From Calditrichia bacterium (lineage in GTDB: Bacteria; Calditrichota; Calditrichia; RBG-13-44-9; J075): 64,000 nt of DNA. Below, one piece after another: positions 26,218 to 41,419 of this stretch. The position numbers and the translations under genes are program-made. The stretch covers positions 297,808 to 361,807 of the forward strand of contig JACKAQ010000001.1 of the NCBI GenBank assembly GCA_020634975.1. The letters run 5' to 3'. Numbering within the stretch: position 1 is the first letter of the stretch; every line of letters begins with the position of its first letter. The notes below the pieces were generated by a model. The model saw only the letters and a list, made by a program, of their open reading frames with translations. It was not told the DNA's origin and did not search any database.

Positions 26218-26267
26218 TGAATCACCTTGTGATAGACCGTTTATTGGTTTCCGATTTTTGTAAAAAA

Positions 26268-26945
26268 TTATCCGCCGAACAACGCAAAACCGCGTCTCGC
26301 TTCGCGGACAAATGTTGCCACCTTTTCAGCAGATTTCCGACCGTCCTCAGCCTCGACGCCGGTGTGCACATCCACCGCAGCCGGACGAACGATGCGAATC
26401 GCATCGAACACGTTTTCGGGTGTCAGTCCGCCGGCGAGCATCAGCGGTTTTGGGGAAATCTCCACGAGTTTCCGGCTGATTTGCCAATCGTGGGTTTTCC
26501 CGGTGGCACCATCCGCGCCCGTTGCCGGATCGTGCGTATCCGTAATAAAACCATCGACCAACGGCGCGAGTGTTTGGGTCATGTTTTCCAACTCGCTCAA
26601 ATTATCCCCGCGAACGATGAGGCTTTTTAAAATAAACACATCCGGCGCGGATTTCCGCAATTGTTGCAATTCTGCAAGTTCAATATTTCCATGAATTTGC
26701 ACGGTTTTGGCGTGCAGCATTTTGCACAATTCCAAAATTTCCGCCGCCGTGTTGAGATAGGTAATCAACACGCCAGAACGATTTTCCGGTAGATTGGCGA
26801 TAATCGCCGCTGCATCTGCATCGTTGATATCTTCCGCATTTACGGTCAATCGCAGCGGAAAGCCGAGCCAATCCACGCCCGAATCGAGCAGCAGTTGCGC
26901 TTCCGCAGCATCAATGATGCCGGCAATTTGAATGATATGTTTCAT
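26268..26945 (-). CDS. trpF: N-(5'-phosphoribosyl)anthranilate isomerase
   Basis: MKHIIQIAGI...KLVEISPKPLMLAGGLTPENV is a TIM-barrel TrpF signature. The six-frame ORF runs further upstream to 27563 only because there is no in-frame stop. Confidence 0.75.
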   Translation of the reverse strand: MKHIIQIAGIIDAAEAQLLLDSGVDWLGFPLRLTVNAEDINDADAAAIIANLPENRSGVLITYLNTAAEILELCKMLHAKTVQIHGNIELAELQQLRKSAPDVFILKSLIVRGDNLSELENMTQTLAPLVDGFITDTHDPATGADGATGKTHDWQISRKLVEISPKPLMLAGGLTPENVFDAIRIVRPAAVDVHTGVEAEDGRKSAEKVATFVREARRGFALFGG

Positions 26946-27083
26946 TTCGCAAGATAAACCATTGCGGCAGAAAATACAACCGGGATTCCGCATTCGCATG
27001 CGGCAACCGTTTGCTTTTTTGCTAACGCTTAAGTAACATTTATCTTTAAATTTATTACGATAAAACAAACTGCAGCGAAGAAA

Positions 27084-28049
27084 ATGAGAACAATCTCCGA
27101 AACACAACTGGACGAAATATTTGGCATCGGCAGCGCCGTCACATTTAAACAAGTGATTGAAGAAGCGCGAATGCTGGCAAAAATTCCCCGCCCGATCATG
27201 ATTCAGGGCGAACGCGGAACGGGCAAGGAATTGCTGGCGCGCGCCATTCATTTGGAAAGCGACCGGAAAAAACAACCGTATGTTGTGGTCAATTGTGCTG
27301 CGTTTCAGGAAGATTTGTTTGCTGCGGAAATGTTTGGCCGGGAAAAAGGCGCGTACACCGGCGCTGTTGATTCGCGTCCCGGCAGACTGGAACTGGCCGA
27401 CGGCGGCACGCTGTTTTTGGACGAAGTGGCGAATATGAGCCGTGCGGTTCAGGAAAAATTGCTTCGCGTGATCGAATATCAACAATTTGAACGGCTCGGC
27501 GGCAGCAAACCGATTTCGGTGGATGTGCGGATTATTGCCGCAACCAACGCCAATCTCGATCAACTCATGGAAAAATCAGAATTTTTGCCGGATTTGTATG
27601 ACCGGTTATCGTTTGCGGTGCTCACTTTGCCACCGCTGCGAAAACGACGGGAAGATATCCCATCGCTGATCGAACACTTCATTTGTCAACTCCACAAAGA
27701 AATTCCCAACCTCGAACACAAATCGTTTACGCCTTCCGCGATTCAGGAACTCCAGAATTACCATTGGCCGGGGAACATCCGGCAGCTCAAAAACATCATC
27801 GAGCGCATTTATATTTCCGACGAAGACGGTACCATCAACGCATCGGAACTGCCGATCGAAATTACATCTGTGGAACCGATCCGCGGTAATTTCTACGAAA
27901 AAGTGCGCGCGTACGAAATCAACCTGTTGCTCAACTCGCTGAAAGATTTTGATGGCAACCAGCGCGCCGCAGCCGAAAATCTTGGGATGTCTTACGACCA
28001 GTTCCGCCACTTCTACAAAAAATACAAGTTGGAAGATTATCTGGTGTAA
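27084..28049 (+). CDS. pspF: Sigma-54-dependent transcriptional activator, AAA+ domain plus C-terminal HTH only (PspF-like, no receiver or sensor domain)
   Basis: It has Walker A (GERGTGKE), a GAYTGA loop (GAFTGA variant), Walker B (LFLDEV), an arginine finger region and a C-terminal Fis-type HTH. Confidence 0.85.
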   Translation: MRTISETQLDEIFGIGSAVTFKQVIEEARMLAKIPRPIMIQGERGTGKELLARAIHLESDRKKQPYVVVNCAAFQEDLFAAEMFGREKGAYTGAVDSRPGRLELADGGTLFLDEVANMSRAVQEKLLRVIEYQQFERLGGSKPISVDVRIIAATNANLDQLMEKSEFLPDLYDRLSFAVLTLPPLRKRREDIPSLIEHFICQLHKEIPNLEHKSFTPSAIQELQNYHWPGNIRQLKNIIERIYISDEDGTINASELPIEITSVEPIRGNFYEKVRAYEINLLLNSLKDFDGNQRAAAENLGMSYDQFRHFYKKYKLEDYLV

Positions 28050-28118
28050 AACACCGACACCGTTGGCGCAATACACCAACCCGATTTCATAAGTTCAATA
28101 AAAACAATAGATTTATTT

Positions 28119-28134
28119 TGGCATTCAGATTGCA
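28119..28134 (+). promoter_or_regulatory. Sigma-54 (-24/-12) promoter
   Basis: TGGCAT-TCAGA-TTGCA has exact consensus spacing (GG at -24, GC at -12). It lies 70 nt downstream of the activator gene and ~180 nt upstream of the next ORF. Confidence 0.55.
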
Positions 28135-28312
28135 ATATTATGGCATGAAGCCTGTGAAGGGGCTGTTAAATGACCAAAATAAATGACAATATGAAACAGA
28201 TTTCCAGAAATTGTCGGGCAGATTTTCTCACCGGAAGATTTCCGGTTTATCCGCGGCAATTGCTGAGAAATATCTTTTTCAACGAACAAGCTTGAGTTTT
28301 TTGGGGTGTGTT

Positions 28313-28732
28313 ATGGTGCAGCAAGACCGTTTTCAATATGAAATGAAGAACATTCTGGAAGCAAAAACATTGCTGGTTGTGCGGGCTGCAAAGCGCGTTC
28401 ACTACCGGTTGGGCAATGTTTCCGATCAAAAAAATTATCTGGATGCATTACAACGCGAATTTGAAGCGGATCATATTCGCTTCAAGAAAGAAGAACCGCA
28501 GCCGGAAGAAGACCTGCCCTCGCGAAGGCTAAAAAAGGATTATCTCTGCTTTGGCAACATGCTGGTGCGAACTATTAATGGTAATGTGATTCCCGAAAAC
28601 GATATTTTAAATTTTCGTAAAGAGCTGAAAAGATTAAACTTGCAATGCGGACTGATCGTAGGATTTTCGGATGACGGCATTGTCGTTGAACGGGTGACGG
28701 TTACAGAATCAAATAAACACAATTTATCCTGA
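28313..28732 (+). CDS. Hypothetical protein, first gene after the sigma-54 promoter
   Basis: It is a 139-aa ORF co-directional with the cluster. I recognise no domain. Confidence 0.4.
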   Translation: MVQQDRFQYEMKNILEAKTLLVVRAAKRVHYRLGNVSDQKNYLDALQREFEADHIRFKKEEPQPEEDLPSRRLKKDYLCFGNMLVRTINGNVIPENDILNFRKELKRLNLQCGLIVGFSDDGIVVERVTVTESNKHNLS

Positions 28733-28748
28733 GCAAACGGAGCACATC

Positions 28749-29282
28749 ATGAAAACAGTACCGCTATTTGAAGAAGAGCAGCAATTTCGCCAACCCTGGC
28801 TGATGGCGCTGCTCGGCATTACGGTGGCGCCGATTACACTGTTTTTGATTTATGTGATGATTTCGCAACTGGTTTTCGGAATTCCGGTTGGCAGCAAACC
28901 GATGCCGAACGCGATGGCCATCTGGTTCATGCCGTTGATGGTGTTGATTTGCAGCGGCATTATTTGGTTGTTTTGGAAAAGCAAATTAATCGTTCGCATC
29001 GATTCGGAAATGCTGCTTATCCGTTTTTTCCCATTCACGAAACGGGAAATACCGCTCTCGAAAATCCGGGAATTTGAAGCGCGGAAATACAATCCGCTCG
29101 GCGAATACGGTGGTTGGGGCGTACGATTGGGCTGGAAAGGCGGCAAAGCCTACACGGTCAGCGGAAATCACGGTGTTCAATTTGTGTTTCGTAATGGCGA
29201 AAAATTGTTGATCGGCTCGCAAAAAGCGACAGAATTTGAAGCTGCACTGCGGAGCGCTCTCGCTGAAAAAATAGACAAATAA
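28749..29282 (+). CDS. Membrane protein with 2 TM helices plus a C-terminal bacterial-PH-like domain (hypothetical)
   Basis: It has two N-terminal TM segments followed by a ~90-aa beta-rich domain. Confidence 0.5.
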   Translation: MKTVPLFEEEQQFRQPWLMALLGITVAPITLFLIYVMISQLVFGIPVGSKPMPNAMAIWFMPLMVLICSGIIWLFWKSKLIVRIDSEMLLIRFFPFTKREIPLSKIREFEARKYNPLGEYGGWGVRLGWKGGKAYTVSGNHGVQFVFRNGEKLLIGSQKATEFEAALRSALAEKIDK

Positions 29283-29332
29283 ATGTTTAATAATATTACA
29301 CTTACAACACTCATTTTTCGGAGGATTTTATC

Positions 29333-30055
29333 ATGAATATTTTTCAAAGAATCACAAAATTGGTCGAAGCCAACGTCAATTCGATGCTGGATAAAGCCGA
29401 AGACCCGGAAGTGATGGTTCGCCAAATCATTCGTGAAATGGAAGAAAGCATCATCGAATTGCGCCGCGAAACCGTAAAAGCCGTTGGCGCCCGCAAATTG
29501 CTGGAAAAGAAAATGCAGCTGCTCAATGAAAAATCCGCTGATCTCCAGCAAAAAGCCACACTCGCGCTGGAAAACGGAAACGAAGATTTAGCGCGCAAAT
29601 TGCTGGAACAAAAAATCGATGTCGAGAAAGAGAACAGCCAACTCGCAAATGAAGTAGAAACAGCAACTTATCTTGCCGAAAAAATGAAACAGGATTTGGT
29701 AAAACTGGAAGACCAGGTGCAAATTGCCCGTCGCCAAAAAGAGGAATTGATTCGCCGTAAACTCGCCGCCGAACGCAAAATGAACGCCACCGGCGCCATT
29801 CGCAAAACCCGCGATGCGTTGGAAGCGCTCACCGGTGCCACCAATAGTGCGGACGCGAATATCAACGCCATCGAAGCGCAAAAAGATAAAATTCTGCAAT
29901 TGGAAGCCGAAGCCGAGGCGATGGAAGAATTGATGGAAGGGAAATCCGCAGACGCCGAAAGCGAAAAAGAGCTGGAAAAAATGATCCAGAATAAAGCGGT
30001 GGAAGACGAATTGGCAAAGCTGAAAAAGATGCTCAGTGACGGCAAAAAAAAGTAG
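29333..30055 (+). CDS. pspA: PspA/IM30 (Vipp1/LiaH) family protein, paralog 1
   Basis: There is a GGAGG ribosome-binding site. The N-terminus MNIFQRITKLVEANVNSMLDKAEDPEVMVRQIIREMEE is followed by a long coiled coil, the typical PspA signature. Confidence 0.85.
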   Translation: MNIFQRITKLVEANVNSMLDKAEDPEVMVRQIIREMEESIIELRRETVKAVGARKLLEKKMQLLNEKSADLQQKATLALENGNEDLARKLLEQKIDVEKENSQLANEVETATYLAEKMKQDLVKLEDQVQIARRQKEELIRRKLAAERKMNATGAIRKTRDALEALTGATNSADANINAIEAQKDKILQLEAEAEAMEELMEGKSADAESEKELEKMIQNKAVEDELAKLKKMLSDGKKK

Positions 30056-30113
30056 CGAATTGAAACAGATCATAAAACCAATTTCGAGTAGCTAATTCAA
30101 TGGGAGAATCACC

Positions 30114-30734
30114 ATGTTAAAACTATACCTCGCCTGCCTATTATTTGGTGGCTTATTTATCATCATCTCCCTGTTTTTTGGCGCGGATGCTGACGCGGAA
30201 GCCGATGTGGATGTGGATGTTGACACTGACATCGACGTGGATACGGATGTGGAAATGGACGCCGACGCCGCAGAAGTCGAAGTTTCCGGCGAAGGTACTG
30301 TGGAAGCCATTAAATTTCTCAGCTTTCGCAATTTTGTGTTTTTTGTGGCCTTTTTCGGGCTCACCGGCAGCCTGCTCACCTGGATTGGCAGCAACTTTTT
30401 GTTGACGTTTGGCGCAGCCATTACGCTGGGATTTGTGGCGGCAACCGTTATGCATCGGGTGATGAAACAACTGGCGGCAACCGAAGTGGGCGAAACGCTG
30501 AATCTCGACCGGTTGGTTGGCATGCCGGCAAAAGTGACGATCAACGTTTCCCGGGATCATCGCGGCAAAGTATCGCTGGAAGCCGTCGGACAACGCATGC
30601 AGCTCCTCGCCCAAACGGCAGAAGAATCGGAACGCGATGAGTTCAGTGTTGGTGAATCGGTTTACATTTTGCACGTAAAAAACGGTATTGCATTTGTTGT
30701 GGAAGAAGCCTTTATCAACTCCGCAACCATTTGA
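30114..30734 (+). CDS. NfeD-like (YuaF-type) membrane protein with an acidic low-complexity linker and a C-terminal OB-fold
   Basis: It has an N-terminal TM segment, a DADAEADVDVDVDTDIDVDTDVEMDADAA tract, further TM segments and a C-terminal beta domain (KVTINVS...VGESVYILHVKNGIAFV). It lies directly upstream of the flotillin gene. Confidence 0.6.
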   Translation: MLKLYLACLLFGGLFIIISLFFGADADAEADVDVDVDTDIDVDTDVEMDADAAEVEVSGEGTVEAIKFLSFRNFVFFVAFFGLTGSLLTWIGSNFLLTFGAAITLGFVAATVMHRVMKQLAATEVGETLNLDRLVGMPAKVTINVSRDHRGKVSLEAVGQRMQLLAQTAEESERDEFSVGESVYILHVKNGIAFVVEEAFINSATI

Positions 30735-30784
30735 TCACCCGTTTATTTATAAATTCGCAGATGTAAAATAATGGAGGATGTCAC

Positions 30785-30982
30785 ATGATTACCAAAGATT
30801 ACCACCGCACATTATTTCTTTCGATGATTTTGATCGCCCTCGGTGTGTCGATTTCCACCACAATGGGGGATTCTTCGGGCACCATTGGCACGGTGATGAT
30901 CGCCGTTGGCGGCTTATTTTTTATCATCGGAATGACCAAAAGAAGAAAATTTGAACAAAAAAATCACCACCCAAAATCATAG
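30785..30982 (+). CDS. Small 2-TM membrane protein
   Basis: It has a GGAGG ribosome-binding site, 65 aa and two hydrophobic helices. Confidence 0.4.
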   Translation: MITKDYHRTLFLSMILIALGVSISTTMGDSSGTIGTVMIAVGGLFFIIGMTKRRKFEQKNHHPKS

Positions 30983-30993
30983 AAAGGTTAGCT

Positions 30994-31173
30994 ATGATAT
31001 ACGTTGGTTTACTGATTTTAGCTTATGTGGCGGTTTGTCTCTATCGCGGAAATTTGATTTGGGAATTGGGCGTTTCCCGCCGCAGTAACAGTCCTTATTT
31101 TTACTGGTTTGGTATCGGAACTTATTCGGTAGTCGCGCTGATGATGATTTACGCAGGCTACATAAATCTATAA
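30994..31173 (+). CDS. Small 2-TM membrane protein (59 aa), not in the ORF track
   Basis: An AAAGG ribosome-binding site precedes it. The sequence is MIYVGLLILAYVAVCLYRGNLIWELGVSRRSNSPYFYWFGIGTYSVVALMMIYAGYINL. Confidence 0.3.
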   Translation: MIYVGLLILAYVAVCLYRGNLIWELGVSRRSNSPYFYWFGIGTYSVVALMMIYAGYINL

Positions 31174-31228
31174 TAAACATTTGTTTGCAATTCAACTTAA
31201 CCAACTTAACTTTTAGGAGGGTTGTGAT

Positions 31229-32773
31229 ATGGATTTCATAAGTGCTATCATATTTATCGTTGTTATCCTCGCGGTTGTTGTGGTGATGATGGTCAGCCGC
31301 TTGCTGATTGTCTGCCATCCCAACGAAGTTGTGATACTTTCCGGACGCAAACGTAAACTGCCGGACGGATCGATTGTCGGTTACCGGCTCATTCGCGGCG
31401 GTCGCGCGGTGCGCATGCCGGTGCTGGAAAAAGCAGCCCGCATGTCGCTGGAATCGATTCCCCTGGAGCTTTCGGTGCGCAACGCGTATTCCAAAGGCGG
31501 TATTCCGTTGAATGTGGATGCCATCGCCAACATCAAAATTGATTCGACAGAACCGGCGTTCGGCAACGCGGTCGAGCGTTTTTTGATGAAACCGATGCAG
31601 GAAATTCACCAGATTGCGAAAGATACGCTGGAAGGTAACCTGCGCGGCGTGCTGGCATCGCTGACGCCGGAAGAAGTGAACGAAGACCGCCTGAAGTTTG
31701 CCCAAAGCCTTATCGAAGAAGCGGATAACGATTTGAACCAACTCGGTTTGCAACTCGATACGCTGAAAATTCAGAATGTCGCGGACGAAGCGGGATATCT
31801 CGATTCGATCGGTCGCCGCAAAACCGCCGAAGTGCTCTCAACCGCACGAATGGCAGAAGCCGCAAAAGCCGCCGAAGCGGAACAGGCAGAAGCGGAAGCA
31901 CGCCAGTTTGCGGAAATTGCCAAAGCCAAAGCAGATCAGGAAATTAAAGCGGCGCAAATTTCTGCGGATCGCGAAGTGAAGATGGCCAAAGCCCGCGCCG
32001 ATGCCGCAGCCCGTCAGGCGGAAGCGGAGCAGGAAGCCGTCGCAAAGGAAGCGGAAGCGACATCACTGCGGAAAGCTGAGGTCGCAAAAGCAATGGCTGA
32101 TCAGGAAATTCGCACATCGCAAATTAAGGCAGATCAAGAGGTTAAGGTATCTCGCGCTATTGCAGATCAACAGATCGAAACTGAGAACAACAATCTGCGT
32201 ATGAAAAAAGCGGAACTGGAACGCGAAGCCATTATCATGGAAAAAGAAGCGGAAGTTGCCGGACAAAAAGCCCAGGCAAAATACGAACAGGATATGGAAG
32301 AAGAACGCATTCTGCTGCAACAAAAACGCCTGATGGCAGACGTTATCGAACCCGCAAAAGCCAAAAAAGAAGCGATGGAGCTGGAAGCACGCGGCGAAGC
32401 TGCGCCGATTCTCGAGAAAGGTAAAGCGAACATCGAAGTGCTGGATCAGATGATCAAAACCTACCTCAGCGCCAAAGGTGAAGGCGAAAAAGTATTCATG
32501 CTGAACATGTTGCCGGATATTATCAAACAACTGTCCGACACGGTGAACAAGGTCACGATCGACAAAGTGAGTGTGATCGACAGCGGCGGAAACGGCAGCC
32601 ACGGCGTGGCAAATTTCATCAACCAGTTGCCCGCAGCAGTGGTTTCGCTGGCGGAACAGATCGAAAACGCCACCGGTGTGAACATCCTCAACCAGTTCAA
32701 ACAGAAACCGGAAATTGGTCAGATTGTCCACCACAACGGTGAGCACGACAAAGCGAAAGATGATGAGAAGTAG
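31229..32773 (+). CDS. floT: Flotillin (SPFH/Band-7 domain, FloT/YuaG-like)
   Basis: It has an N-terminal TM segment and an SPFH domain, followed by long Ala/Glu-rich EA-repeat coiled coils (AEAEQAEAEARQ...). Confidence 0.85.
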   Translation: MDFISAIIFIVVILAVVVVMMVSRLLIVCHPNEVVILSGRKRKLPDGSIVGYRLIRGGRAVRMPVLEKAARMSLESIPLELSVRNAYSKGGIPLNVDAIANIKIDSTEPAFGNAVERFLMKPMQEIHQIAKDTLEGNLRGVLASLTPEEVNEDRLKFAQSLIEEADNDLNQLGLQLDTLKIQNVADEAGYLDSIGRRKTAEVLSTARMAEAAKAAEAEQAEAEARQFAEIAKAKADQEIKAAQISADREVKMAKARADAAARQAEAEQEAVAKEAEATSLRKAEVAKAMADQEIRTSQIKADQEVKVSRAIADQQIETENNNLRMKKAELEREAIIMEKEAEVAGQKAQAKYEQDMEEERILLQQKRLMADVIEPAKAKKEAMELEARGEAAPILEKGKANIEVLDQMIKTYLSAKGEGEKVFMLNMLPDIIKQLSDTVNKVTIDKVSVIDSGGNGSHGVANFINQLPAAVVSLAEQIENATGVNILNQFKQKPEIGQIVHHNGEHDKAKDDEK

Positions 32774-32948
32774 GTTAAAAAAACCGCACCATCAGCATGA
32801 AACGCTTGTTCCGCGCTGATGGTGTGTTAAAACAAACGAAAACAAATATTTAGAAATACATCGAATTTTTCAAAAAATGAAAAAGAACAAGACTATTTCT
32901 GCCGGGTTGATGAAAGTATGAACAGAAAAAAACCTAAAACACTGAGCC

Positions 32949-33395
32949 GTGAAGATAGAGCTAAAAGGCGAAAAAGAGAGACTAATCAAACTCATTTTAT
33001 CAAAGCTATTCATCAGCCTTTTATTGGGGATGTTTAACGGTGCAGTTGTAGATAATATTAAAATAGGATTCTGGTCGGTTTTAATTTTCATAGCAACATT
33101 TACGGCTTCCTATTTTATTAGAAATTACATTCGTGTTCGACTTTATCTAACTGCTGTTCTATGGGGTTTGGTTTGGGGCGCATGTATGTCAGGTATCTTA
33201 ACACTCAATTATTACGGACGACATGGGTTCAGAGATGATACGATCGCATTAGCAATTATTATGCTTTTGGGTTATTCACTCATGTTCGTAATAGATATTT
33301 ATATTGGGAGACATGATTATATTAAACCAGATTTTCAGTCTTATGGTGAGTTTTACAAAAGCTGGTTCAATTATAAGTATCTTAAAAACAAATAA
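32949..33395 (+). CDS. Hypothetical 4-TM membrane protein in an AT-rich islet (GTG start)
   Basis: The ORF is 148 aa. The local GC (~33%) is far below the neighbours. Confidence 0.3.
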   Translation: MKIELKGEKERLIKLILSKLFISLLLGMFNGAVVDNIKIGFWSVLIFIATFTASYFIRNYIRVRLYLTAVLWGLVWGACMSGILTLNYYGRHGFRDDTIALAIIMLLGYSLMFVIDIYIGRHDYIKPDFQSYGEFYKSWFNYKYLKNK

Positions 33396-33427
33396 TTAGA
33401 CTCAAAATATTTGAAAGGAGCACAGTA

Positions 33428-33991
33428 TTGGGATTCACAAATTTTTTCAAAGGAAAAAAAGAAGGTGAAGAATTTGATCCACTACGGGACTTGACACTTT
33501 CAAAAATGAAGGTCGGGTATTTTGTTGAATTTGATCTGAAAACCTGGCAGGTTACCGCATACAATAAATACGATTTTGGCGACGGCTTATGGAGCGAGGA
33601 ATGGGAACTGACCTCCGGTCGCGAAAAAATCTGGCTGGAAAAACGCGAAGATGACGAAGTGGAATGGACCGTCAGCAAAAAGCTGCCAATCGGCGCAATT
33701 GCGGAAGATGTCCGCCAGCACGTCAAAGATTTCGACGATCCGCCGGGGCAAATTTCCGTGAAGGAAAAAACGTTTTATCTGGATGAATCCGGTTCGGTCT
33801 ATTATTATCCCGGTGGCAACACTCAACAACAGGGTCAGGGTATCATCGCATGGGAATATATTGATGATGACGATGAAAATTTTGTGAGCATCGAGCAATG
33901 GGGCGAGGATGATTTTGAAGCATCGCAAGGCTATTATGTGGAAGAATTTATGTTTAGCAACATCCTGCCGTCGGGGGACGCACAAGCTTGA
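33428..33991 (+). CDS. DUF4178-like protein (PspA-neighbourhood family)
   Basis: It has a TTG start after AAAGGAG. The sequence KVGYFVEFDLKTWQVTAYNKYDFGDGLWSEEWEL...IWLEKREDD fits the DUF4178 pattern as I recall it. It has an acidic C-terminus. Confidence 0.45.
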   Translation: MGFTNFFKGKKEGEEFDPLRDLTLSKMKVGYFVEFDLKTWQVTAYNKYDFGDGLWSEEWELTSGREKIWLEKREDDEVEWTVSKKLPIGAIAEDVRQHVKDFDDPPGQISVKEKTFYLDESGSVYYYPGGNTQQQGQGIIAWEYIDDDDENFVSIEQWGEDDFEASQGYYVEEFMFSNILPSGDAQA

Positions 33992-34102
33992 CGGAAGCAT
34001 GGATAAAGGATAAAGTAAATTTTTTGACTTTTTCAATATTAAACAATAAAAAACAACATTTCTAAATCAATAAAATACAAACACTTAAAAAAGGGGTTTG
34101 TT

Positions 34103-34819
34103 TTGAAAAAAACAATTACATTTGCACTTTTCGGAATTGTTGCGTTGCTGCTGTCGAGCTGCGGCGCATCGAATCCGGTTGAGAAAATGCAACGCGAGCT
34201 GGACGATTATCCGGAATATTCCATTATTCTGGAAGATATGAAAATGGAAGGCACTTTTTTTAAGGATTACTTTCATCAATATAAAATTATTCATGCGGAA
34301 AAAGCCGGTGATTCGCTGGCATATTTCACCAATCAAACAGAATGGATTTTGGTAGATGAAGATTTTTTCAGCAATTACCAACGGTATTTGGGAATGACAA
34401 TTGCATCCAAATCTGCTGAAGGTGATGTGAGCGACTCTCCGCAACCGCCGGGCTACCAATATGTTGGCGATGAACGCTACGGCCAATGGCGAACCGATAA
34501 CTCCGGCAACAGCTTTTGGGAATTTTACGGAAAATATGCCATGTTGCAGGCGCTGCTCGGCGGCTGGAATCGCCCGATTTATCAGGATGACTGGCGCGAT
34601 TACCGCACCTCCCGGCGCAACAATCAGCCGTATTTCGGCAAAAATCGCCAGTGGGGCACCGACGGAACCGCAACGAAAAAAACGAATCCAACATTTTTCC
34701 AACGCCGCCAAATGCGCGAGCAGGCGTCCAAACAATCCTTTACGGATAAGCTGAAACAACGCACACGCCGCAGTAATATGAGTAAATCCCGAAGCCGCAG
34801 CGGTGGTTTTGGAAAATAA
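34103..34819 (+). CDS. Lipoprotein with a basic C-terminal tail (possible DUF4247-type partner of DUF4178)
   Basis: It has a lipobox (LLSSC) and a Trp/Tyr-rich central region. The C-terminus is KLKQRTRRSNMSKSRSRSGGFGK. Confidence 0.5.
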   Translation: MKKTITFALFGIVALLLSSCGASNPVEKMQRELDDYPEYSIILEDMKMEGTFFKDYFHQYKIIHAEKAGDSLAYFTNQTEWILVDEDFFSNYQRYLGMTIASKSAEGDVSDSPQPPGYQYVGDERYGQWRTDNSGNSFWEFYGKYAMLQALLGGWNRPIYQDDWRDYRTSRRNNQPYFGKNRQWGTDGTATKKTNPTFFQRRQMREQASKQSFTDKLKQRTRRSNMSKSRSRSGGFGK

Positions 34820-34834
34820 ACAAATGAGGAAATA

Positions 34835-35017
34835 ATGAAACATAACGATCAAAATCAGGACAATAAAAAAGAAATGGGAAAATGGGTTGCCGTTGGCATC
34901 GCTATCGGAACGGCAATGGGCGTTTCGATGGATAATATCGGGCTTGGCATCTCGTTGGGTCTTGTGATCGGTCTGGCAATCGGCACAGTAAAATCCCGAA
35001 ATGATAAAACGGAGTAA
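34835..35017 (+). CDS. Glycine-zipper small membrane protein
   Basis: It has a GAGGAA ribosome-binding site. The sequence is WVAVGIAIGTAMGVSMDNIGLGISLGLVIGLAIG. Confidence 0.45.
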   Translation: MKHNDQNQDNKKEMGKWVAVGIAIGTAMGVSMDNIGLGISLGLVIGLAIGTVKSRNDKTE

Positions 35018-35020
35018 AAA

Positions 35021-35866
35021 ATGACTTTAGACCAAACCATATCCGGACTAATTTACCTTATTGCAGTGTTTATACTTTTTTGGCTGGGAAAAGTGGTTTA
35101 TGGAATAACCAATCCGCGCATCAATTTGCGCGATGAATTGGTGAAAAAAGATAATCTGGCGATGGCGCTGGCAGTGATCGGCTACTATTTCGGGCTGATT
35201 ATCGCGTTGGGTGGCGTGCTTTCCAGCGAATCCGCAGGATTGTTCATCGATCTGTTCGAAATATTTTTTTACGGCATTATTTCGATTGTCCTGATGAATT
35301 TTTCGATTAAAATCAATGACAAAATCATCCTCAGCAAATTTGACAATATCAAAGAAATTATCGATGATCAGAACGCCGGAACGGGCGTTGTGGAAGCGGC
35401 CAACCACATTGCTGTGGGCATGATTATCGCCGGCGCGATGAGCGGCGATTACGGCGGCTGGGCAACTGCGCTCACATTCTGGATTTTGGGACAAGCCGTG
35501 CTGATTGTCGCAGGCATTGTTTACGCCAAAATTCTGCCGTTCGATCTGCACGCGGAAATCGAAAAAGATAACGTTGCTGTGGGCGTTGCGTTTGCGGGTG
35601 TGCTGATCGCCATCGGCAACATCTTGCGCATCGGCTCCACCGGCGATTTTATTTCGTGGCAACAGAATCTCACCACGTTTTTCGGATTCGTCATATTCGG
35701 ACTGGTGCTGCTGCCGGTTTTGCGCTTTCTGACCGACAAAGTGTTGCTCCCCGGCGAAAAACTTACCGATGAACTGGTGAACCAGACAAATCCGAATATC
35801 GGTGCCGGTGCGGTGGAAGCGTTTGCCTATATCGGTGCGTCGTTTTTGATTGGTTGGGTTATATAG
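35021..35866 (+). CDS. Membrane protein with internally repeated DUF350-like units
   Basis: There are four repeats of N-x-A-x-A/G-x-x-x-x-G-x-x-I-A-x-G with TM helices: DNLAMALAVIGYYFGLIIALGG, NAGTGVVEAANHIAVGMIIAGA, DNVAVGVAFAGVLIAIGN and NIGAGAVEAFAYIGASFLIG. Confidence 0.5.
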   Translation: MTLDQTISGLIYLIAVFILFWLGKVVYGITNPRINLRDELVKKDNLAMALAVIGYYFGLIIALGGVLSSESAGLFIDLFEIFFYGIISIVLMNFSIKINDKIILSKFDNIKEIIDDQNAGTGVVEAANHIAVGMIIAGAMSGDYGGWATALTFWILGQAVLIVAGIVYAKILPFDLHAEIEKDNVAVGVAFAGVLIAIGNILRIGSTGDFISWQQNLTTFFGFVIFGLVLLPVLRFLTDKVLLPGEKLTDELVNQTNPNIGAGAVEAFAYIGASFLIGWVI

Positions 35867-35914
35867 CTGGTTTCTAGTTTCTGGTTTCTGGTTTCTGGAT
35901 TGAAGATTCTGGAT
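35867..35914 (+). repeat. Heptamer array TTCTGGT/TTCTGGA (x5, degenerate) immediately 5' of the four-helix-bundle gene
   Basis: The sequence is ctggtttctagtttctggtttctggtttctggattgaagattctggat. Confidence 0.6.
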
Positions 35915-35951
35915 GCTCTGAAAAATGTAAACTTAAGTGCAGAATGTGAAA

Positions 35952-36395
35952 ATGAGTTACAAAAAATTGCAGATATGGCAGCTATCTCGTGAAATTGTGA
36001 TTGATATTCACAAAATGACGCTGGAAACGTTACCAAAATTTGAGATGTTCGAAACAGGATCACAAATTCGCAGATCGAGCAAATCGACCAAATCTTTGAT
36101 TGTGGAAGGATACGGCAGGCGCTATTATAAACAGGATTTCATACGTTATTTATTGAATGCGCTCGCCTCTAACGATGAAACAATTGATCATTTAGAAACC
36201 CTTTTCGAAACAAAGTCTTTATCTGATTCAATTCTGTACGAAAACATACACGAACGGCTTATTTCTTTAGGTAAAATGCTCAACAATTTCATCAACTCGG
36301 TTCAAAAAAATCATCAGACACCATCGATTTATGTAAAGGAAGAAATGCCAGACTATCTGAATTTTCCGGAAACAAAAGATGACAAAACAGAATAA
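35952..36395 (+). CDS. Four-helix-bundle protein (TIGR02436, 23S rRNA intervening-sequence protein family)
   Basis: [59 protein letters not shown] matches the family. GC is ~33% against ~52% for the neighbours. Confidence 0.7.
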
Positions 36396-36451
36396 AATTT
36401 TTGCAAATATAGATTCGGAATCCAGAACTTGCGCTGAGCGCAGCCGAAGCG

Positions 36452-36481
36452 TCCAGAATCCAGAATCCAGAATCCAGAATC
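36452..36481 (+). repeat. Heptamer array TCCAGAA x4 (reverse complement of the upstream array) immediately 3' of the four-helix-bundle gene
   Basis: The sequence is tccagaatccagaatccagaatccagaatc. It is preceded by a further TCCAGAA copy and the near-palindrome GCGCTGAGCGC at 36421-36445. Confidence 0.6.
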
Positions 36482-36495
36482 TCTCCGGCAACTGG

Positions 36496-38013
36496 TTGCT
36501 GAAAGCCTGCATTTTCGCCACCGGGTTATCCGGAATTGTGGCGGAATACGTGATGTCCACGCTGGCGAGTTATCTGCTCGGTAACTCCGTTTTGCAATGG
36601 ACACTCACTATTTCCATCATGCTGTTTGCGATGGGCGTTGGCAGCCGTTTCAGCAAATTTGTGGATGACGCGTTGCTGGATGCCTTCGTTTTCACGGAAT
36701 TACTGCTCTCCGTTTTATGCGCGATCAGCGCTACAACTATCTATTTTTTATCGGCTTACATGAATCCGATAACACCGCTGATTTACACGCTGTCATTCGC
36801 AATCGGTTTGCTGATCGGGCTGGAAATTCCGCTGGCAACCCGTCTCAACGATTATTTTGAGGATTTGAAAATCAACATCAGTTCGGTAATGGAAAAAGAT
36901 TATTACGGCGCGTTGCTCGGCGGCTTGCTGTTTGCGTTTGTCGCCCTCCCCTACCTCGGTTTAACTTATACGCCCATTTTGCTCGGCGCAGTAAATTTTG
37001 CAGTCGCGGCGGCGCTATTTTGGCAGCATCGCGATTCGCTAAAATTTCCGAAAACACTCACTGCCGGATTTTTGATCGTGCCCGCCTTGCTCGGCGCATT
37101 GGCCGTTTCGGCGGAGCCGATTGTGCTGTATGGCGAGCAGCAAAAATATGTGGATAAAGTTGTTTATCAGGAGCAAACGCCCTATCAGCGAATTGTGATC
37201 ACTCAATTCAAAAATGATTACTGGCTGTATCTCAATGGAAATGAACAATTTAGCAGCTACGACGAACACCGCTATCACGAACCGCTGGTGCATCCGGCAA
37301 TGCTGGCGAGCGTTGCGCATAAAAATGTGCTGATTCTCGGTGGCGGCGATGGATTGGCTGCGCGGGAAATCCTCAAATATCCCGACGTCGAAAAAATTAC
37401 GTTGGTCGATCTCGATCCGGCGATGACGGAACTCGGCAAGAATTACCCGGTTTTTCGCCAACTCAACCAAAATGCGCTCAGCGATCCCCGGGTGCACATT
37501 CGCAACGAGGACGCATACACATTTTTGCAGCAAACCCGGGAAATTTTCGATGTGATTATTATCGATTTGCCCGACCCGAAAACCATCGAGCTGGCGCGAT
37601 TGTACACCCGGGAATTTTATCAATTGGCGAAACGTCAACTGTCCAAAGGCGGGATTGTGGTTACGCAAGCTGGCAGCCCGTTTTTTTCACGGGAAGCGTA
37701 TCTCTGCATATTGCAAACGATGCGAACTGCCGGATTGGCTGCGATTCCTTATCACAACCACATTCCAACACTCGGCGAATGGGGCTGGGTGCTGGCAATG
37801 AATGCGGAAATTGACGAAAATCGTTTGAAAAATCACCTGCTATCACTATCATTTGATGATTTGCAAACACGTTTTTTAAACCGGGACGCAATGGCGGCGA
37901 TGCTTCTTTTCGGCAAAAACGAACTGGCCGGTATCGATGCCATTCGCGTTAATTCTGAACTGGAACTCGCATTATTTGATTATTACAAAAATGGGTCGTG
38001 GGAATTTTATTGA
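36496..38013 (+). CDS. Spermidine/spermine-synthase-like aminopropyltransferase fused to an N-terminal polytopic (~7 TM) membrane domain
   Basis: The C-terminal domain has LILGGGDGLAAREILKYPDVEKITLVDLDP...DVIIIDLPDP, the SpeE fold motifs. The N-terminal 220 aa are hydrophobic helices. The start is uncertain: I use TTG 36496, and the open frame begins at 36379 inside the repeat. Confidence 0.7.
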   Translation: MLKACIFATGLSGIVAEYVMSTLASYLLGNSVLQWTLTISIMLFAMGVGSRFSKFVDDALLDAFVFTELLLSVLCAISATTIYFLSAYMNPITPLIYTLSFAIGLLIGLEIPLATRLNDYFEDLKINISSVMEKDYYGALLGGLLFAFVALPYLGLTYTPILLGAVNFAVAAALFWQHRDSLKFPKTLTAGFLIVPALLGALAVSAEPIVLYGEQQKYVDKVVYQEQTPYQRIVITQFKNDYWLYLNGNEQFSSYDEHRYHEPLVHPAMLASVAHKNVLILGGGDGLAAREILKYPDVEKITLVDLDPAMTELGKNYPVFRQLNQNALSDPRVHIRNEDAYTFLQQTREIFDVIIIDLPDPKTIELARLYTREFYQLAKRQLSKGGIVVTQAGSPFFSREAYLCILQTMRTAGLAAIPYHNHIPTLGEWGWVLAMNAEIDENRLKNHLLSLSFDDLQTRFLNRDAMAAMLLFGKNELAGIDAIRVNSELELALFDYYKNGSWEFY

Positions 38014-38089
38014 GAACCGATTGATAAACAACCTGATCAGCAAAATAAAATCGAATAGATAGAAGCCAAAAGCCAAGTGCCAAAAGCCA

Positions 38090-39100
38090 ATGAAAAATAT
38101 TGCCCATAACATTATCAAATTTGTCATCAAGGAAAACCTGCACCGCATTTTGCTGATCATGTTGTTGCTGATTGTTTTCGGTGCGGTGGGCATGGCGATT
38201 TTTGAGCCGAATGTCAATTGGGATAACGCATTGTGGTGGAGTATCGTCACGTTGACCACTGTCGGATATGGCGATATTGCGCCAACTACGTTCGGCGGGC
38301 GCATCGTTGGATCGATCATCATGATTTTGGGTATCGGCATTTTGGGGATGTTCACGGCAACCATCGCCAGCGTATTTGTGGAGCAAAAACTGAAAGTGAA
38401 TCGCGGAATGAGTAATTACGATTTCACCAATCACACGATTATTTGTGAATGGAATTATCGCGCCAAAGAAATTTTGAGAGAGCTGCGTTCAGACAGTCGC
38501 GTGCTGGATCAACCCATCATTTTGATCGCAGATATCGACGAAAAACCGGTGAATGACGAAAATCTCCATTTCATCAAAGGCGAAGTGGACGAAGCAAATT
38601 TGCAGCGCGCCAATATTGCGGCTGCAAAAACGGTCGTCATTCTCGGCGATGACAAATTGGATAACAACGCCCGCGATGCGCAAGTGGTGCTCGCTGCGCT
38701 GATTATCGAATCCATCAACCCGAGCGCTTACACAATTGTGGAATTGGTGAACGAACAAAACGTGGCGCATTGCCGTAAAGCGCATGTGGACGAAATTATT
38801 GTTTTAAATGAGTTTAGCAGCCGCCTAATTGCCCGCGCAGCGCTCGATCACGGTATTTCGAAAGTGATGAGCGAACTGCTCAGCGCCAGCACCGGCAACA
38901 ATTTGTATCAGGTGCCGGTGCCCCGCGAACTGGCAGATCAATCATTTCTGGTTGTGTTTTCGGAGATGAAACGCACCCGGAACAGCATTGTTCTGGCGGT
39001 GTATCGCCGGGATCAGGATATCGTAATTTCCAACCCGGATGTGGATTTGAAAGTAGCAGCGAACGACCAGTTGGTCATCGTTTCGCAAAACGAACAGTAA
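38090..39100 (+). CDS. MthK-like K+ channel (2TM pore plus RCK/TrkA-N domain)
   Basis: The selectivity filter is TLTTVGYGD, followed by an RCK Rossmann domain. Confidence 0.85.
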   Translation: MKNIAHNIIKFVIKENLHRILLIMLLLIVFGAVGMAIFEPNVNWDNALWWSIVTLTTVGYGDIAPTTFGGRIVGSIIMILGIGILGMFTATIASVFVEQKLKVNRGMSNYDFTNHTIICEWNYRAKEILRELRSDSRVLDQPIILIADIDEKPVNDENLHFIKGEVDEANLQRANIAAAKTVVILGDDKLDNNARDAQVVLAALIIESINPSAYTIVELVNEQNVAHCRKAHVDEIIVLNEFSSRLIARAALDHGISKVMSELLSASTGNNLYQVPVPRELADQSFLVVFSEMKRTRNSIVLAVYRRDQDIVISNPDVDLKVAANDQLVIVSQNEQ

Positions 39101-39114
39101 TTTGAGGTGATGAA

Positions 39115-39480
39115 ATGTCCCTTTTTTCGAGAATCGCAGGAATTATTCGCGCTAACCTGAATTTCCGGCGCGATGATGTTGACATCGACGATAGCGTTTA
39201 CGAAGAAATTCGTGATTCGCAGCGCGAATATCAACGCCAAAAACAGCAGCGCAACGATGCCAATCATCACCGGAATGACGATCCGTTGGCCAAACACTAC
39301 GCCAATCTTGAAGTGCCGTACGGCTCGGATCTGGAAACTGTCACCAAATCGTGGAAAGCGTTGCTGCGCAAATATCACCCGGATATTCATTCCGGCGATC
39401 CCGAAAAACAGAAAATTGCGAATCAACTTGTTCAGGAATTAAACCAATCTTATAATGAGTTGAAAAAAAAGTTACGCTAA
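39115..39480 (+). CDS. J-domain protein (C-terminal DnaJ domain) with a PspA-like N-terminal amphipathic helix
   Basis: The J domain is DLETVTKSWKALLRKYHPDIHSGDPEKQKIANQLVQELNQSY (HPD motif). The N-terminus MSLFSRIAGIIRANLN parallels MGIFSRIFKIF and MNIFQRITKLVEANVN of the two PspA paralogs. Confidence 0.65.
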   Translation: MSLFSRIAGIIRANLNFRRDDVDIDDSVYEEIRDSQREYQRQKQQRNDANHHRNDDPLAKHYANLEVPYGSDLETVTKSWKALLRKYHPDIHSGDPEKQKIANQLVQELNQSYNELKKKLR

Positions 39481-39556
39481 AAATTGATCATAAATAATTG
39501 TTTTCATTAGGATTAATCAACACAATTAATTCACTATTACAACAGGAGGCTAACGT

Positions 39557-39958
39557 ATGGCCATGTTTAGCAAATTCGAAATGGTTAAGGATTATTTAAT
39601 GGAACTCGGCTTTGCGATTATTCGCGAAGATGAGGATGAAGAGATCGTGGTTGTAAATGATCCCGATAATGGCATCAACAATATGGTCATCGATTGCGAA
39701 GACCCGATTGTGATTATGGAGCAATTGATTATGGAAGTGCCGGAAAAACCCGGTGATTTGTATGAAAAATTGCTGAAAATGAACCGCACACTGGTTCACG
39801 GCGCATTTGTGCTGGATGAAGAAGGCAAACGCGTTATTTATCGCGATACGCTGCAGTTGGAAAATCTCGATAAAAATGAGCTGGAAGCCTCGATTGTCGC
39901 GCTTTCCATGGGCATTGCAGAATTTGGCAGCGAGTTGCTGAAATACGCAAAACGCTAA
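39557..39958 (+). CDS. YbjN-like small acidic protein (candidate PspA-associated partner)
   Basis: It has an AGGAGG ribosome-binding site and 133 aa. It lies immediately upstream of the second pspA. Confidence 0.45.
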   Translation: MAMFSKFEMVKDYLMELGFAIIREDEDEEIVVVNDPDNGINNMVIDCEDPIVIMEQLIMEVPEKPGDLYEKLLKMNRTLVHGAFVLDEEGKRVIYRDTLQLENLDKNELEASIVALSMGIAEFGSELLKYAKR

Positions 39959-40021
39959 TTTTTTTATCGCTTAACTATTTGATAATATTTAATTTGAAAC
40001 CAAACTTCAGGAGATAAAAAG

Positions 40022-40741
40022 ATGGGTATTTTTTCGCGCATATTCAAAATTTTCCAGTCGGAGGCGCATTCAGTTGTGGATCAACTGGAAGATCCGATCA
40101 AATTGACCGAACAGGGCATTCGCGATTTGAAAAAAGATTTGGCGCAAGCCATGCGTAGCCTGGCGGAAGTGAAATCGTTGTCCATCCGCATGCGCAAAGA
40201 CGGCGAAGACCAGAAAAAGCTTGCTGCCGATTACGAACGCAAAGCCATGATGCTGCTCCAACGCGCCCAAAGCGGCGAACTGGACGCCGCAGAAGTTGAC
40301 CGTTTGGCAACCGAAGCGCTCACCAAAAAAGAAGATTCCTCACGCCGCGCACAGGAATTTATGACCAATCACGAGCAGCAGCAGAAAATGGCTGACCAGT
40401 TGCAGAACAAAGTGAACAAACTGAAATCTGCGATTTCCAAATATGAAAACGAGTTGGTCACTCTTCGCGCCCGCGCCCGCACTGCGGAATCGATGAAAAA
40501 AATCAACAAACAAATGGCGCAAGTTGATGCATCCAGCACCGTTGCGATGCTCGAAAAAATGAAAGACAAAGTGACCGAAGAAGAATCGCTGGCGGAAGCC
40601 TACGGCGAAATGGCCGACACAACCAAATCCGTTGACGAAGAAATTGACAAAGCGTTGGCGGGTGCGTCTGTGGATGCCGCAAAAGATTCGCTGGCAGCGC
40701 TAAAAGCCAAAATGGGCTTAAAAGAAGGCGATGCCAAATAG
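40022..40741 (+). CDS. pspA: PspA/IM30 family protein, paralog 2
   Basis: The N-terminus MGIFSRIFKIFQSEAHSVVDQLEDPIKLTEQGIRDLKKDL is followed by a coiled coil. Confidence 0.8.
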   Translation: MGIFSRIFKIFQSEAHSVVDQLEDPIKLTEQGIRDLKKDLAQAMRSLAEVKSLSIRMRKDGEDQKKLAADYERKAMMLLQRAQSGELDAAEVDRLATEALTKKEDSSRRAQEFMTNHEQQQKMADQLQNKVNKLKSAISKYENELVTLRARARTAESMKKINKQMAQVDASSTVAMLEKMKDKVTEEESLAEAYGEMADTTKSVDEEIDKALAGASVDAAKDSLAALKAKMGLKEGDAK

Positions 40742-40779
40742 TTGTTTTTTAATCAGTTGTAATTTTTTTAATAAAAAAA

Positions 40780-40808
40780 GGGGCGTATTTAACACACGCC
40801 CCTTTTTT
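40780..40808. terminator. Bidirectional rho-independent terminator
   Basis: A GGGGCGT...ACGCCCC hairpin is followed by T6. It lies between pspA2 and the convergent rfbC. Confidence 0.6.
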
Positions 40809-40858
40809 ATTCCAAATTGATTTTTTGCGAGCCACAAACAATCGTTTGCCAAAAATAC

Positions 40859-41419
40859 TCAGTATTCGGGCAACACATCTTTCGGCGCATTTTTCAACGC
40901 CGGGTGCAATTCGTCTTTCGGCGATAAAACCGGATTTACATCCAGTTGCCAGTCGATGCCAATTTCCGGATCGGACCATTGGATGCCGTATTCATCTTTT
41001 CCGTCGTAAAAATCCGTGCATTTATAGGTCACGTTCGCGGTTTCGCTGACCACGTAAAATCCGTGGGCGAATCCCGGCGGCACATAAATTTGCCATTTGT
41101 TGCGTTCGGAAAGCGTTACACCGACCCATTTTCCAAACGTTGGCGAGCCTTTGCGGATGTCCACTGCCACATCAAAAATTTCGCCGGAAACCGCCTGAAC
41201 CAGTTTGCCCTGCGGGCGTTTCAATTGATAATGCAATCCCCTCAAAATGCCTTTTGTGGAAAACGAGTGATTGTCCTGCACAAAATTTTCGCGAATACCG
41301 GCTTCGGCGTATTTTTCCGCATGAAATGTTTCCATAAAAAAGCCGCGCGGATCGCGGAACACCCGCGGCTTGATAACCAGAACTTCCGGAATTTCCGTTG
41401 GCTCAACCGTAATCGACAT
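40859..41419 (-). CDS. rfbC: dTDP-4-dehydrorhamnose 3,5-epimerase
   Basis: RGFFMETF...RGLHYQ...KLVQAVSGEIFDVAVDIR is a cupin RmlC signature. Confidence 0.9.
   Translation of the reverse strand: MSITVEPTEIPEVLVIKPRVFRDPRGFFMETFHAEKYAEAGIRENFVQDNHSFSTKGILRGLHYQLKRPQGKLVQAVSGEIFDVAVDIRKGSPTFGKWVGVTLSERNKWQIYVPPGFAHGFYVVSETANVTYKCTDFYDGKDEYGIQWSDPEIGIDWQLDVNPVLSPKDELHPALKNAPKDVLPEY

Follow-up and report, generated by a model that had tools for sequence, protein, structure and literature searches.

We analysed a 64,000-nucleotide (nt) stretch of the genome of a Calditrichia bacterium (GenBank assembly GCA_020634975.1, contig JACKAQ010000001.1, positions 297,808 to 361,807; hereafter the window, numbered from its first base), in which a small gene flanked by inverted heptamer arrays, together a cassette, lies between two genes of a conserved cluster. 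The features of the locus are all on the plus strand. The upstream host gene encodes a DUF350 membrane protein (35021–35866; PF03994, E = 6e-51) whose C terminus, ending in IGWVI, lines up with the GWVV end of its homologues. The first base of the 5′ heptamer array directly follows its stop codon TAG (35864–35866; distance 0 nt). The 5′ arm (35867–35917) is followed by a leader (35918–35951); the gene for a 147-residue four-helix-bundle protein of the PF05635/TIGR02436 family, here called IVP (35952–36395); an isolated TCCAGAA unit (36421–36427); a GC-rich palindrome (36429–36451); and the 3′ arm (36448–36489), which is predicted to pair with the 5′ arm. The downstream host gene (36379–38013; NF002956, 604 bits) encodes a SpeE-like polyamine aminopropyltransferase with a membrane N-terminal domain.

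The IVP gene had initially been annotated as a four-helix-bundle gene of the 23S intervening sequence (IVS) family, and profile hidden Markov models bear this out: the protein scores 84.3 bits against PF05635 ('23S_rRNA_IVP'; cutoff 33.8) and 88.5 bits against TIGR02436 ('four helix bundle protein'; cutoff 24). Its relatives include S23p and Avd, and it has a weak match to the PHROG family 'Avd protein of DGR' (diversity-generating retroelement; E = 2e-4). An AlphaFold2 model of the monomer, built on 24 homologues that share 35 invariant residues, has a pLDDT (predicted local distance difference test score) of 87 and places helices at residues 7–25, 35–55, 60–86, and 93–120. The top Foldseek matches of the model in the PDB are 2GSC (XCC0516; TM(target) 0.91–0.94), 2RLD (BT_0352, 'S23 ribosomal protein family'; 0.83–0.90), and 4DWL (Bordetella phage Avd; 0.84–0.86). 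The 2GSC entry contains five chains, and the title of its paper refers to five four-helix bundles. By its profile matches and predicted fold, IVP is a bona fide PF05635 member, Avd-like and belonging to a pentamer-forming family of four-helix bundles. Profile searches revealed no enzymatic domain in the open reading frame (ORF), a PADLOC run on the locus returned only a marginal match (E = 0.0097), and no second IVP gene is present in the window (copy number 1). An alternative start codon, GTG at 35937, would extend the ORF to 35937–36395. Residues 121–147 are predicted to form a disordered C-terminal tail that is absent from typical members of 125 residues; a C-terminal extension (22 residues, disordered; window 36316–36395, IVP residues 122–147) is also present in L011 and L013, which are 70% identical and occupy another site, so that the extension is older than the overlap with the SpeE-like start described below.

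The arms consist of tandem 7-nt units in opposite orientation. The upstream array (35867–35915) reads CTGGTTT, CTAGTTT, CTGGTTT, CTGGTTT, CTGGATT, GAAGATT, CTGGATG, a variant of the family unit CTGGATR, and Tandem Repeats Finder (TRF) assigns it a period of 7, 4.6 copies, and 92% matches. The 3′ arm comprises four TCCAGAA units in perfect tandem (36452–36481) plus flanking pairing bases and corresponds to the family unit YATCCAG. The initial annotation had described five TTCTGGT/TTCTGGA units before the gene and five TCCAGAA units, their exact inverse, after it. The inverted arrays are there, but an exact reverse complement of TCCAGAA is found only in the TTCTGGA units (TTCTGGT agrees at 6 of 7 positions), and the TCCAGAA units are four in tandem plus the isolated one. 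The arms are 84–88% complementary over 26–32 nt, and a phased search for (CTNGATN)x3 with at most three mismatches gives 10 matches in the window versus 0.99 expected, eight of them in the two arms.

Cofolding of the two arms (35866–35917 with 36448–36489) gives −64.1 kcal/mol, versus −35.8 ± 3.6 kcal/mol for shuffled sequences, with 37 predicted intermolecular base pairs in helices of 5, 2, 6, 6, 8, and 10 bp. The four longest helices (6, 6, 8, and 10 bp) sit in the arrays, with mostly single mismatches between them, as at the first three junctions. In the minimum-free-energy fold of the whole cassette, the arm stem closes the structure (z = −3.9). No Rfam family matches within 35700–36700.

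Comparison with related loci indicates that the cassette is an insertion into the junction between the DUF350 and SpeE-like genes, as had been proposed. In a metagenome scan we collected 80 loci encoding a SpeE-like protein with 52–72% identity; none of the 80 carries an IVP gene, and in most of them the DUF350 and SpeE-like genes are separated by a spacer of only 5–92 nt, with the stop and start codons overlapping in some cases. The same cassette is present at the same site in the complete chromosome of a sister Calditrichia species (OZ245730.1; L015), with 95% identity in the flanks and 89% identity in the IVP coding sequence; the insertion thus predates the split of the two species, and the cassette is, on this evidence, old and vertically inherited. 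The cassette also occupies this site in nine short contigs from environmental samples and in a Calditrichota metagenome-assembled genome (GCA_041391305.1), which is 97.5% identical to the window across 6.5 kb. Two contigs differ by whole units: L005 has three TCCAGAA units rather than four (a 7-nt deletion), and L007 lacks one upstream unit; the arrays thus vary in steps of a whole unit. In another contig (L010, 700–1011), the match to the window ends in the middle of the TCCAGAA array and gives way to unrelated GC-rich sequence; the repeat probably gave rise to a chimeric assembly here.

Other lineages have repeatedly received insertions at the same junction. The DUF350/SpeE-like spacers of L101, L103, L109, L111, L117, L138, L165, and L171 contain other inserts: a PsiE-like small membrane ORF, a REP-associated tyrosine transposase (RAYT) with flanking hairpins resembling repetitive extragenic palindromic (REP) elements, a thiolase gene, a long perfect palindrome resembling a miniature inverted-repeat transposable element (MITE), and tandem repeats of ~40 nt.

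The near-palindrome pointed out in the initial annotation is present (TTGCGC-TGA-GCGCAG, then CCGAAGCG) and is predicted to fold into a hairpin that branches off the 3′ arm. Its core, GCGCTGAGCGC at 36431–36441, occurs once in the whole window and belongs to a 45-nt segment (the palindrome and three heptamers) that is missing from L015; the isolated unit proximal to it is kept there as GGAATCCAGAAC. Similar small hairpins break the arrays in L016, L039/L073, L071, L078, and L092. The same 11-mer is found in the empty-site spacer of the relative L135 (about 2380–2501), and a similar segment, ...GAGCTCAGCCGAACGAAG, is found in that of L097 (2069–2239). In view of these empty-site spacers, the palindrome may be a separate small repeat or a leftover of the original spacer; the cassette-bearing L015 lacks it.

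The GC content of the IVP gene is 35.5%, versus 47.8% for the DUF350 gene, 48.4% for the SpeE-like gene, and 48.7% for the window. The dip first reported for the locus is therefore real, but the figures given for it (~33% versus ~52%) were somewhat exaggerated (35.5% versus 47–48%). We rejected low GC as a sign of recent transfer: in 81 of 81 loci carrying a related IVP gene, the gene is lower in GC than its flanks (mean gap 8.8 points), and its GC content follows that of the host (r = 0.88, slope 0.67). Low GC is thus no mark of recent arrival; it is a family trait of long-resident genes.

These 81 loci (80 of them, L015–L094, from a scan of one genome per species; some measures were made on 79) represent at least seven phyla, with members in Calditrichia, Ignavibacteria, Bacteroidota, Desulfobacterota, Planctomycetota (anammox), Verrucomicrobiota, and Fibrobacterota. 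IVP homologues are 64–76% identical across very different phyla and form at least 7,937 clusters at 90% identity, and ~2,700 clusters at 50% identity lie within reach of one sequence. The nearest 147-residue relatives (two, 70% identity) lie at another site, between peptidase M13 and M16 genes, and are flanked by eight GCTGGAT units upstream and ~17 ATCCAGC/ATCAAAC units downstream.

Analysis of the flanks shows that heptamer arms characterise the protein family and not this locus alone. In particular, CTNGAT reaches 15.0/kb in the 300 nt upstream of IVP genes versus a background of 1.03/kb (~15-fold), and ATCNAG reaches 14.1/kb in the 300 nt downstream versus 0.85/kb (~16-fold), while neither motif is enriched in the wrong orientation (1.3–1.6/kb). 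At least two units of each kind are present in 63 of 79 loci, and the best inverted alignment of the two flanks has a median score of 36 versus 18 for displaced controls, exceeding every control in 62 of 79. In the right orientation there are 43 upstream and 42 downstream phased arrays (three or more units each), and in the wrong orientation two and two; the only phased array in 438 kb of IVP-less SpeE loci is itself an ORF-less arm-loop-arm hairpin (L161). TRF arrays with a period of 7, 14, or 21 have a density of 2.8/kb near IVP genes, compared with 0.19/kb in the remainder of those loci and 0.084/kb in loci without IVP. The initial proposal that the inverted arrays are cassette ends or binding sites agrees with these data: the arrays follow the gene family across phyla and sites and are nearly absent elsewhere, and, rather than being widespread and unrelated to TIGR02436 genes, they are enriched only beside IVP.

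The close relatives share one layout: an upstream stop codon, 0–5 nt, the 5′ array (median 35 nt over arrays of three units or more), a leader of ~40 nt that in most loci contains a purine-rich Shine-Dalgarno-like stretch as judged by eye, an ORF usually of 125 residues, ~18 nt, the 3′ array (median 42 nt), ~33 nt, and the downstream start codon. In 54 of 68 loci, the first unit lies close to the end of a same-strand ORF (80 codons or longer; −11 to +39 nt), and in 38 of these 54 the 5′ array begins within ±5 nt of that stop codon. The upstream gene is co-oriented at roughly 80–85% of loci. The arrays are kept in five of 81 loci in which the ORF is disrupted. L050 (1960–2300) retains an internally deleted IVP ORF of ~70 residues between arms, and L084 (2100–2215) and L161 (2130–2272) are ORF-less arm-loop-arm hairpins; a search for a close empty site of the L161 hairpin was negative. 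An irregular interruption in L050 (AAACTGCCGAT / ATCGGCAGTTT) is mirrored in both arms, and L022 (2480–3000) has nested or tandem arms beside an intact copy.

The arrangement extends to distant members of the family. Among 12 members with 26–45% identity, collected by tblastn against plasmids, nine are flanked by inverted heptamer arrays built from different units: Geminocystis (L175; GGGAAAA upstream and TTTTCCC downstream), Riemerella (L176; GGTTYAA / TTRAACC), Leptolyngbya (L179; G-rich units), Nostoc punctiforme (L180) and Calothrix (L182; both GGGTGTR / YACACCC), Nostoc edaphicum (L183; GGGAACA / TGTTCCC), Anabaena sp. 90 plasmid pANA02 (L184, 689–1057, between cas6 and cas4; GGTGACA / TGTCACC), Stanieria (L185; GGCAGAR / YTCTGCC), and Azospirillum lipoferum (L186; GAGGACR / YGTCCTC). 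The Azospirillum copy lies wholly within a bacterial large-subunit (LSU) rRNA gene (Rfam RF02541, model positions 572–1845), at helix 45 as judged by the flanking sequence. Two copies in Nostoc PCC 7120 have a downstream array only, with transposase-related sequence just upstream, and the G-rich arrays of one Oscillatoria copy are directly oriented. Across the members sampled, the 7-nt period and the inverted layout are conserved family-wide, and the unit sequence is subfamily-specific and kept within a subfamily across phyla. As far as these sequences go, the arm architecture is a rule for the PF05635 family, copies inside 23S rRNA included.

Part of this rule has a precedent in the Coxiella burnetii 23S IVS, which contains two or three tandem GACAGAT heptamers, their number varying between strains, and a 28-bp terminal stem that is cleaved by RNase III at the start of the first repeat (PMC4990558). 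We found no account of a general heptamer rule beyond the Coxiella case in the openly accessible literature. Published descriptions of IVP genes in cas operons and of inserts in rRNA genes of the candidate phyla radiation (CPR) do not mention repeats. IVP genes described as CRISPR-associated may merely reflect insertion into cas operon junctions, a reading that fits the Anabaena copy.

The closest known counterparts of the cassette are the ORF-containing IVSs of 23S rRNA (Leptospira, Coxiella burnetii helix 45, Azospirillum lipoferum), which likewise hold a PF05635/S23p ORF within terminal inverted repeats and have a stem of tandem heptamers whose copy number varies between strains (GACAGAT in Coxiella and GAGGACR/YGTCCTC in Azospirillum, as in L005 and L007 for the window). 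The cassette differs in lying at a junction of protein-coding genes rather than in an rRNA helix, in its unit (CTGGWTT/TCCAGAA), and in having a downstream host ORF that probably starts inside it; it resembles an ORF-containing rRNA IVS but lacks the defining rRNA location. The second counterpart is Avd of DGRs (4DWL), which has the same fold and belongs to the same superfamily as IVP, although the Foldseek identity is only 12–13%. The Avd pentamer binds structured RNA through repeated pockets between protomers; specifically, it binds stem-loop RNA with flipped-out bases entering crevices between protomers (bioRxiv 10.1101/2023.10.23.563531). We rejected the cassette itself as a DGR: no reverse transcriptase or RVT domain was found among the called genes within ±10 kb (template and variable repeats were not searched for). 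Flanking heptamer arrays are not known from DGRs.

The 3′ end of the cassette appears to have been built into the downstream host gene. An ATG at 36379 lies inside the IVP gene, giving a 17-nt overlap (IVP stop codon 36393–36395), and the SpeE-like frame is open from it; if this is the start codon, the first 39 codons of the SpeE-like gene are cassette-encoded, the TCCAGAA array included. An alternative start, TTG at 36496, coincides with the residue at which the alignment of the SpeE-like body with homologues begins (LLKACIF), and homologues start 5–30 codons upstream of the corresponding (L/V)LKxxxF motif wherever a start can be placed; at the remaining homologue loci the first start codon in frame is already within DUF350, so that tail lengths read from it are overstated. 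L015 has CTG in place of the TTG of the window, which leaves the equivalent ATG as its only start in frame, and the 45-nt difference in length between the two species is in frame. The sole start shared with L015 being the ATG inside the 3′ end of the IVP gene, the SpeE-like ORF would read through the array, whose translation product most probably forms part of an N-terminal tail of 39 residues (...RSRSVQNPESRIQNLSGNW-LLKACIF). The initial suggestion that the downstream array overlaps a remodelled SpeE-like start is thereby upheld. The 7-nt deletion in L005 breaks the SpeE-like frame from ATG 36379; we considered this deletion as proof of an untranslated array and dropped it, since L015 and the in-frame 45-nt indel point the opposite way. 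A downstream ORF through the 3′ array is found at only four of 45 family loci, which indicates that the read-through is a local exaptation, and the cassette 3′ end has probably been co-opted in this lineage as the SpeE-like start region. For annotators, the case implies that a cassette of this type may remodel the start codons and N termini next to it, the SpeE-like gene being an example.

The family membership, the insertion, the oriented array architecture, the adjacency to the stop codon, and the predicted pairing are the observations that a mechanism has to accommodate. On balance, and with slightly better than even confidence, we favour a model in which the two arms pair in the transcript, the stem being an RNase III site and/or a docking site for a putative IVP pentamer. 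The cassette would be co-transcribed with the host operon, since a promoter and terminator scan of its plus strand gave no match. The arms would pair into a long stem with a 7-nt period, comprising helices of 6–10 bp separated mostly by single mismatches; this stem would close off the insert and bring the upstream stop codon to within a few tens of nt of the downstream start codon. By analogy with the rRNA copies, the stem may be an RNase III site, here serving to process the transcript or to neutralise the insertion, and, by analogy with Avd, it would probably also dock the encoded, presumably pentameric protein. RNase III processing and the drawing together of the flanks would make the insertion tolerable.

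Several points weigh against this model. RNase III cleavage and protein binding outside rRNA are extrapolated from other systems. G·U-type mismatches between arms are not in excess over A/C-type mismatches (129 versus 108, p = 0.19), unit-by-unit covariation between arms is absent (0.570 versus 0.587 with shuffled unit order), and the two arms have mirror-image unit spectra; all three results fit a double-stranded DNA motif in two orientations equally well. Without a G·U excess or covariation, register-specific RNA pairing is not demonstrated, and arrays of a double-stranded DNA motif would look alike. A cruder comparison of duplex energies favours the sense strand at 52 versus 25 loci (p = 0.007) and receives little weight here because long flanks dominated the energies. 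The arms of L015 are much shorter than those of the window. The probable SpeE-like start sits in the loop of the arm stem, so that RNase III cleavage of the stem would sever the SpeE-like mRNA from its start. Finally, the protein of the Coxiella IVS was undetected by proteomics, and its ORF is apparently decaying (PMC4990558).

The strongest alternative, which we nevertheless consider unlikely, is that the cassette is a mobile element at the DNA level, a non-autonomous transposon, with the arrays as terminal or subterminal inverted repeats bound by a recombinase acting in trans or by IVP as an accessory DNA-binding factor, and the ORF-less hairpins as MITE-like derivatives. It would account for related copies at many different sites, for the existence of ORF-less and truncated derivatives, and for the mirror-image unit spectra without G·U asymmetry or unit-level covariation, and other elements (RAYT/REP and a MITE-like palindrome) use the same DUF350/SpeE-like spacer in other lineages. 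As in REP sequences, bacterial interspersed mosaic elements (BIMEs), and MITEs, hairpin-forming repeats lie right after stop codons in operon junctions, the ORF-less hairpins of the present element included. However, REP sequences are single palindromes mobilised by RAYT, whereas the cassette consists of arrays of a 7-nt unit around a conserved non-enzymatic ORF, and no multi-copy, near-identical set of the present element was seen. Of the features by which DNA transposons and MITEs are recognised, terminal inverted repeats are present; neither near-identical copies at multiple sites nor a transposase was found, and the cassette carries no recombinase gene. Past mobility is evident from the insertions at many sites, and recent mobility is unsupported: no near-identical copies at different sites were found among the sampled loci and no relatives were found in viral contigs, in pairs of IVP genes with an nt identity of 80% or more whose flanks allow a comparison, the two sites are orthologous, the closest pair at different sites (L036/L040) is 82% identical at the nt level, and the IVP proteins of L024 and L029, both from one genome, share 80% identity. 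The empty sites (62–72% identical at the SpeE protein level) are too diverged to fix either the boundaries or a target-site duplication, and the window holds a single copy. The rRNA copies, moreover, are known to be handled as RNA.

A second alternative, which we judge improbable, treats the arrays as double-stranded DNA iterons that are coated by IVP oligomers, autoregulating the gene or insulating its transcription within the operon. A precedent for such an arrangement is the omega repressor of inc18 plasmids, a small protein that binds contiguous 7-bp heptads, direct and inverted, cooperatively, and that is encoded beside them. The cassette likewise has 7-bp repeats in direct and inverted orientation next to a small-protein gene; omega, however, is a ribbon-helix-helix protein with heptads in promoters, whereas IVP is a four-helix bundle for which DNA binding is hypothetical. 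A fixed period of 7 with a unit that differs between subfamilies and is conserved within them would fit protein-site co-evolution, and the 35-nt median of the 5′ array equals five units in a family that forms pentamers (five chains in 2GSC), although this median, coming from arrays of at least three units, is weak evidence. Sequence-specific DNA binding is not known for this fold, for which the structural precedent is RNA binding, and the arrays outlast decayed ORFs.

A third alternative, a shade less probable again, is that gain and loss of TCCAGAA units shifts the SpeE-like frame, so that the array would act as a contingency switch for phase variation, as a local by-product of the insertion. 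The array is in frame, 5′ of the conserved SpeE-like body and with a start codon before it, and one of ten near-identical contigs (L005) has three units and a broken frame, with one 5′ unit fewer in L007. Against this, the evidence comes from one variant contig that could reflect assembly collapse, four repeats make a short tract, TTG 36496 could rescue translation, and, with a read-through ORF at only four of 45 family loci, such a switch cannot be what the element class is for. The remaining notion, that a recent AT-rich orphan gene happens to lie beside chance simple repeats, has in its favour a real GC dip and other heptamer arrays in the window that have no IVP gene nearby, but it is refuted by the ~15-fold, orientation-specific, family-wide array enrichment, by a low GC that is universal and follows the host, and by the sharing of the cassette with the sister species, and is almost certainly wrong.

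A broader reading is also possible, which we advance tentatively and with less than even confidence. PF05635 genes and their inverted arms could constitute one very large, so far unrecognised class of selfish 'intervening' elements that insert at stop codons and in rRNA helices and neutralise themselves through a 7-nt-period stem that is bound by the pentamer, with one unit or mismatch per protomer pocket, and cut by RNase III; rRNA IVSs, IVP genes in cas operons, and at least part of the cyanobacterial heptamer repeats would then be the same element. The defining features would be inverted 7-nt arrays beside the gene, a fixed period, a clade-specific unit, a 5′ array at the host stop codon, and the same anatomy in rRNA IVSs. 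We know of no function or coherent biology for the proteins of 23S rRNA IVSs since 1993; uniting these IVSs with a very large population of operon-junction cassettes would make the function of the protein family experimentally approachable.

The cyanobacterial repeats in question are the short tandemly repeated repetitive (STRR) sequences, intergenic tandem heptanucleotides of Nostocales, with STRR1–3 having the units CCCCAGT, TTGGTCA, and CAACAGT. The sampled cyanobacterial IVP genes are likewise flanked by heptamer arrays (GGGTGTR, GGGAACA, GGTGACA, GGCAGAR), but the STRR1–3 units are absent from the units seen at these genes. No link between STRR sequences and IVP genes was found in the openly accessible literature searched.

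The wider surroundings of the cassette (26000–41000) form a conserved cluster of stress-type genes, comprising those for a sigma-54 activator, PspA, Band_7, DUF4178, DUF350, and SpeE-like proteins, and continuing with those for a K+ channel with an RCK domain, a DnaJ-domain protein, a YbjN-like protein, and a second PspA. Other heptamer arrays occur in the window. An AAGGATA array of 4.3 copies (14125–14154) lies just past a terminator-like hairpin (14077–14102), and two copies of the same unit, as GGATAAA, lie in the spacer after the DUF4178 gene (34001–34015). These arrays have no inverted partner and no nearby IVP gene; on the opposite strand they read ATCCTTT, which has ATCC in common with the family unit ATCCAG. 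An array of four AAGCCAA units (38063–38090) ends at the ATG of the K+ channel gene and lies inside an inverted repeat (38027–38046/38147–38166; 20 nt, 95% complementary) that extends from the SpeE-like stop codon to the 5′ coding region of the channel gene.

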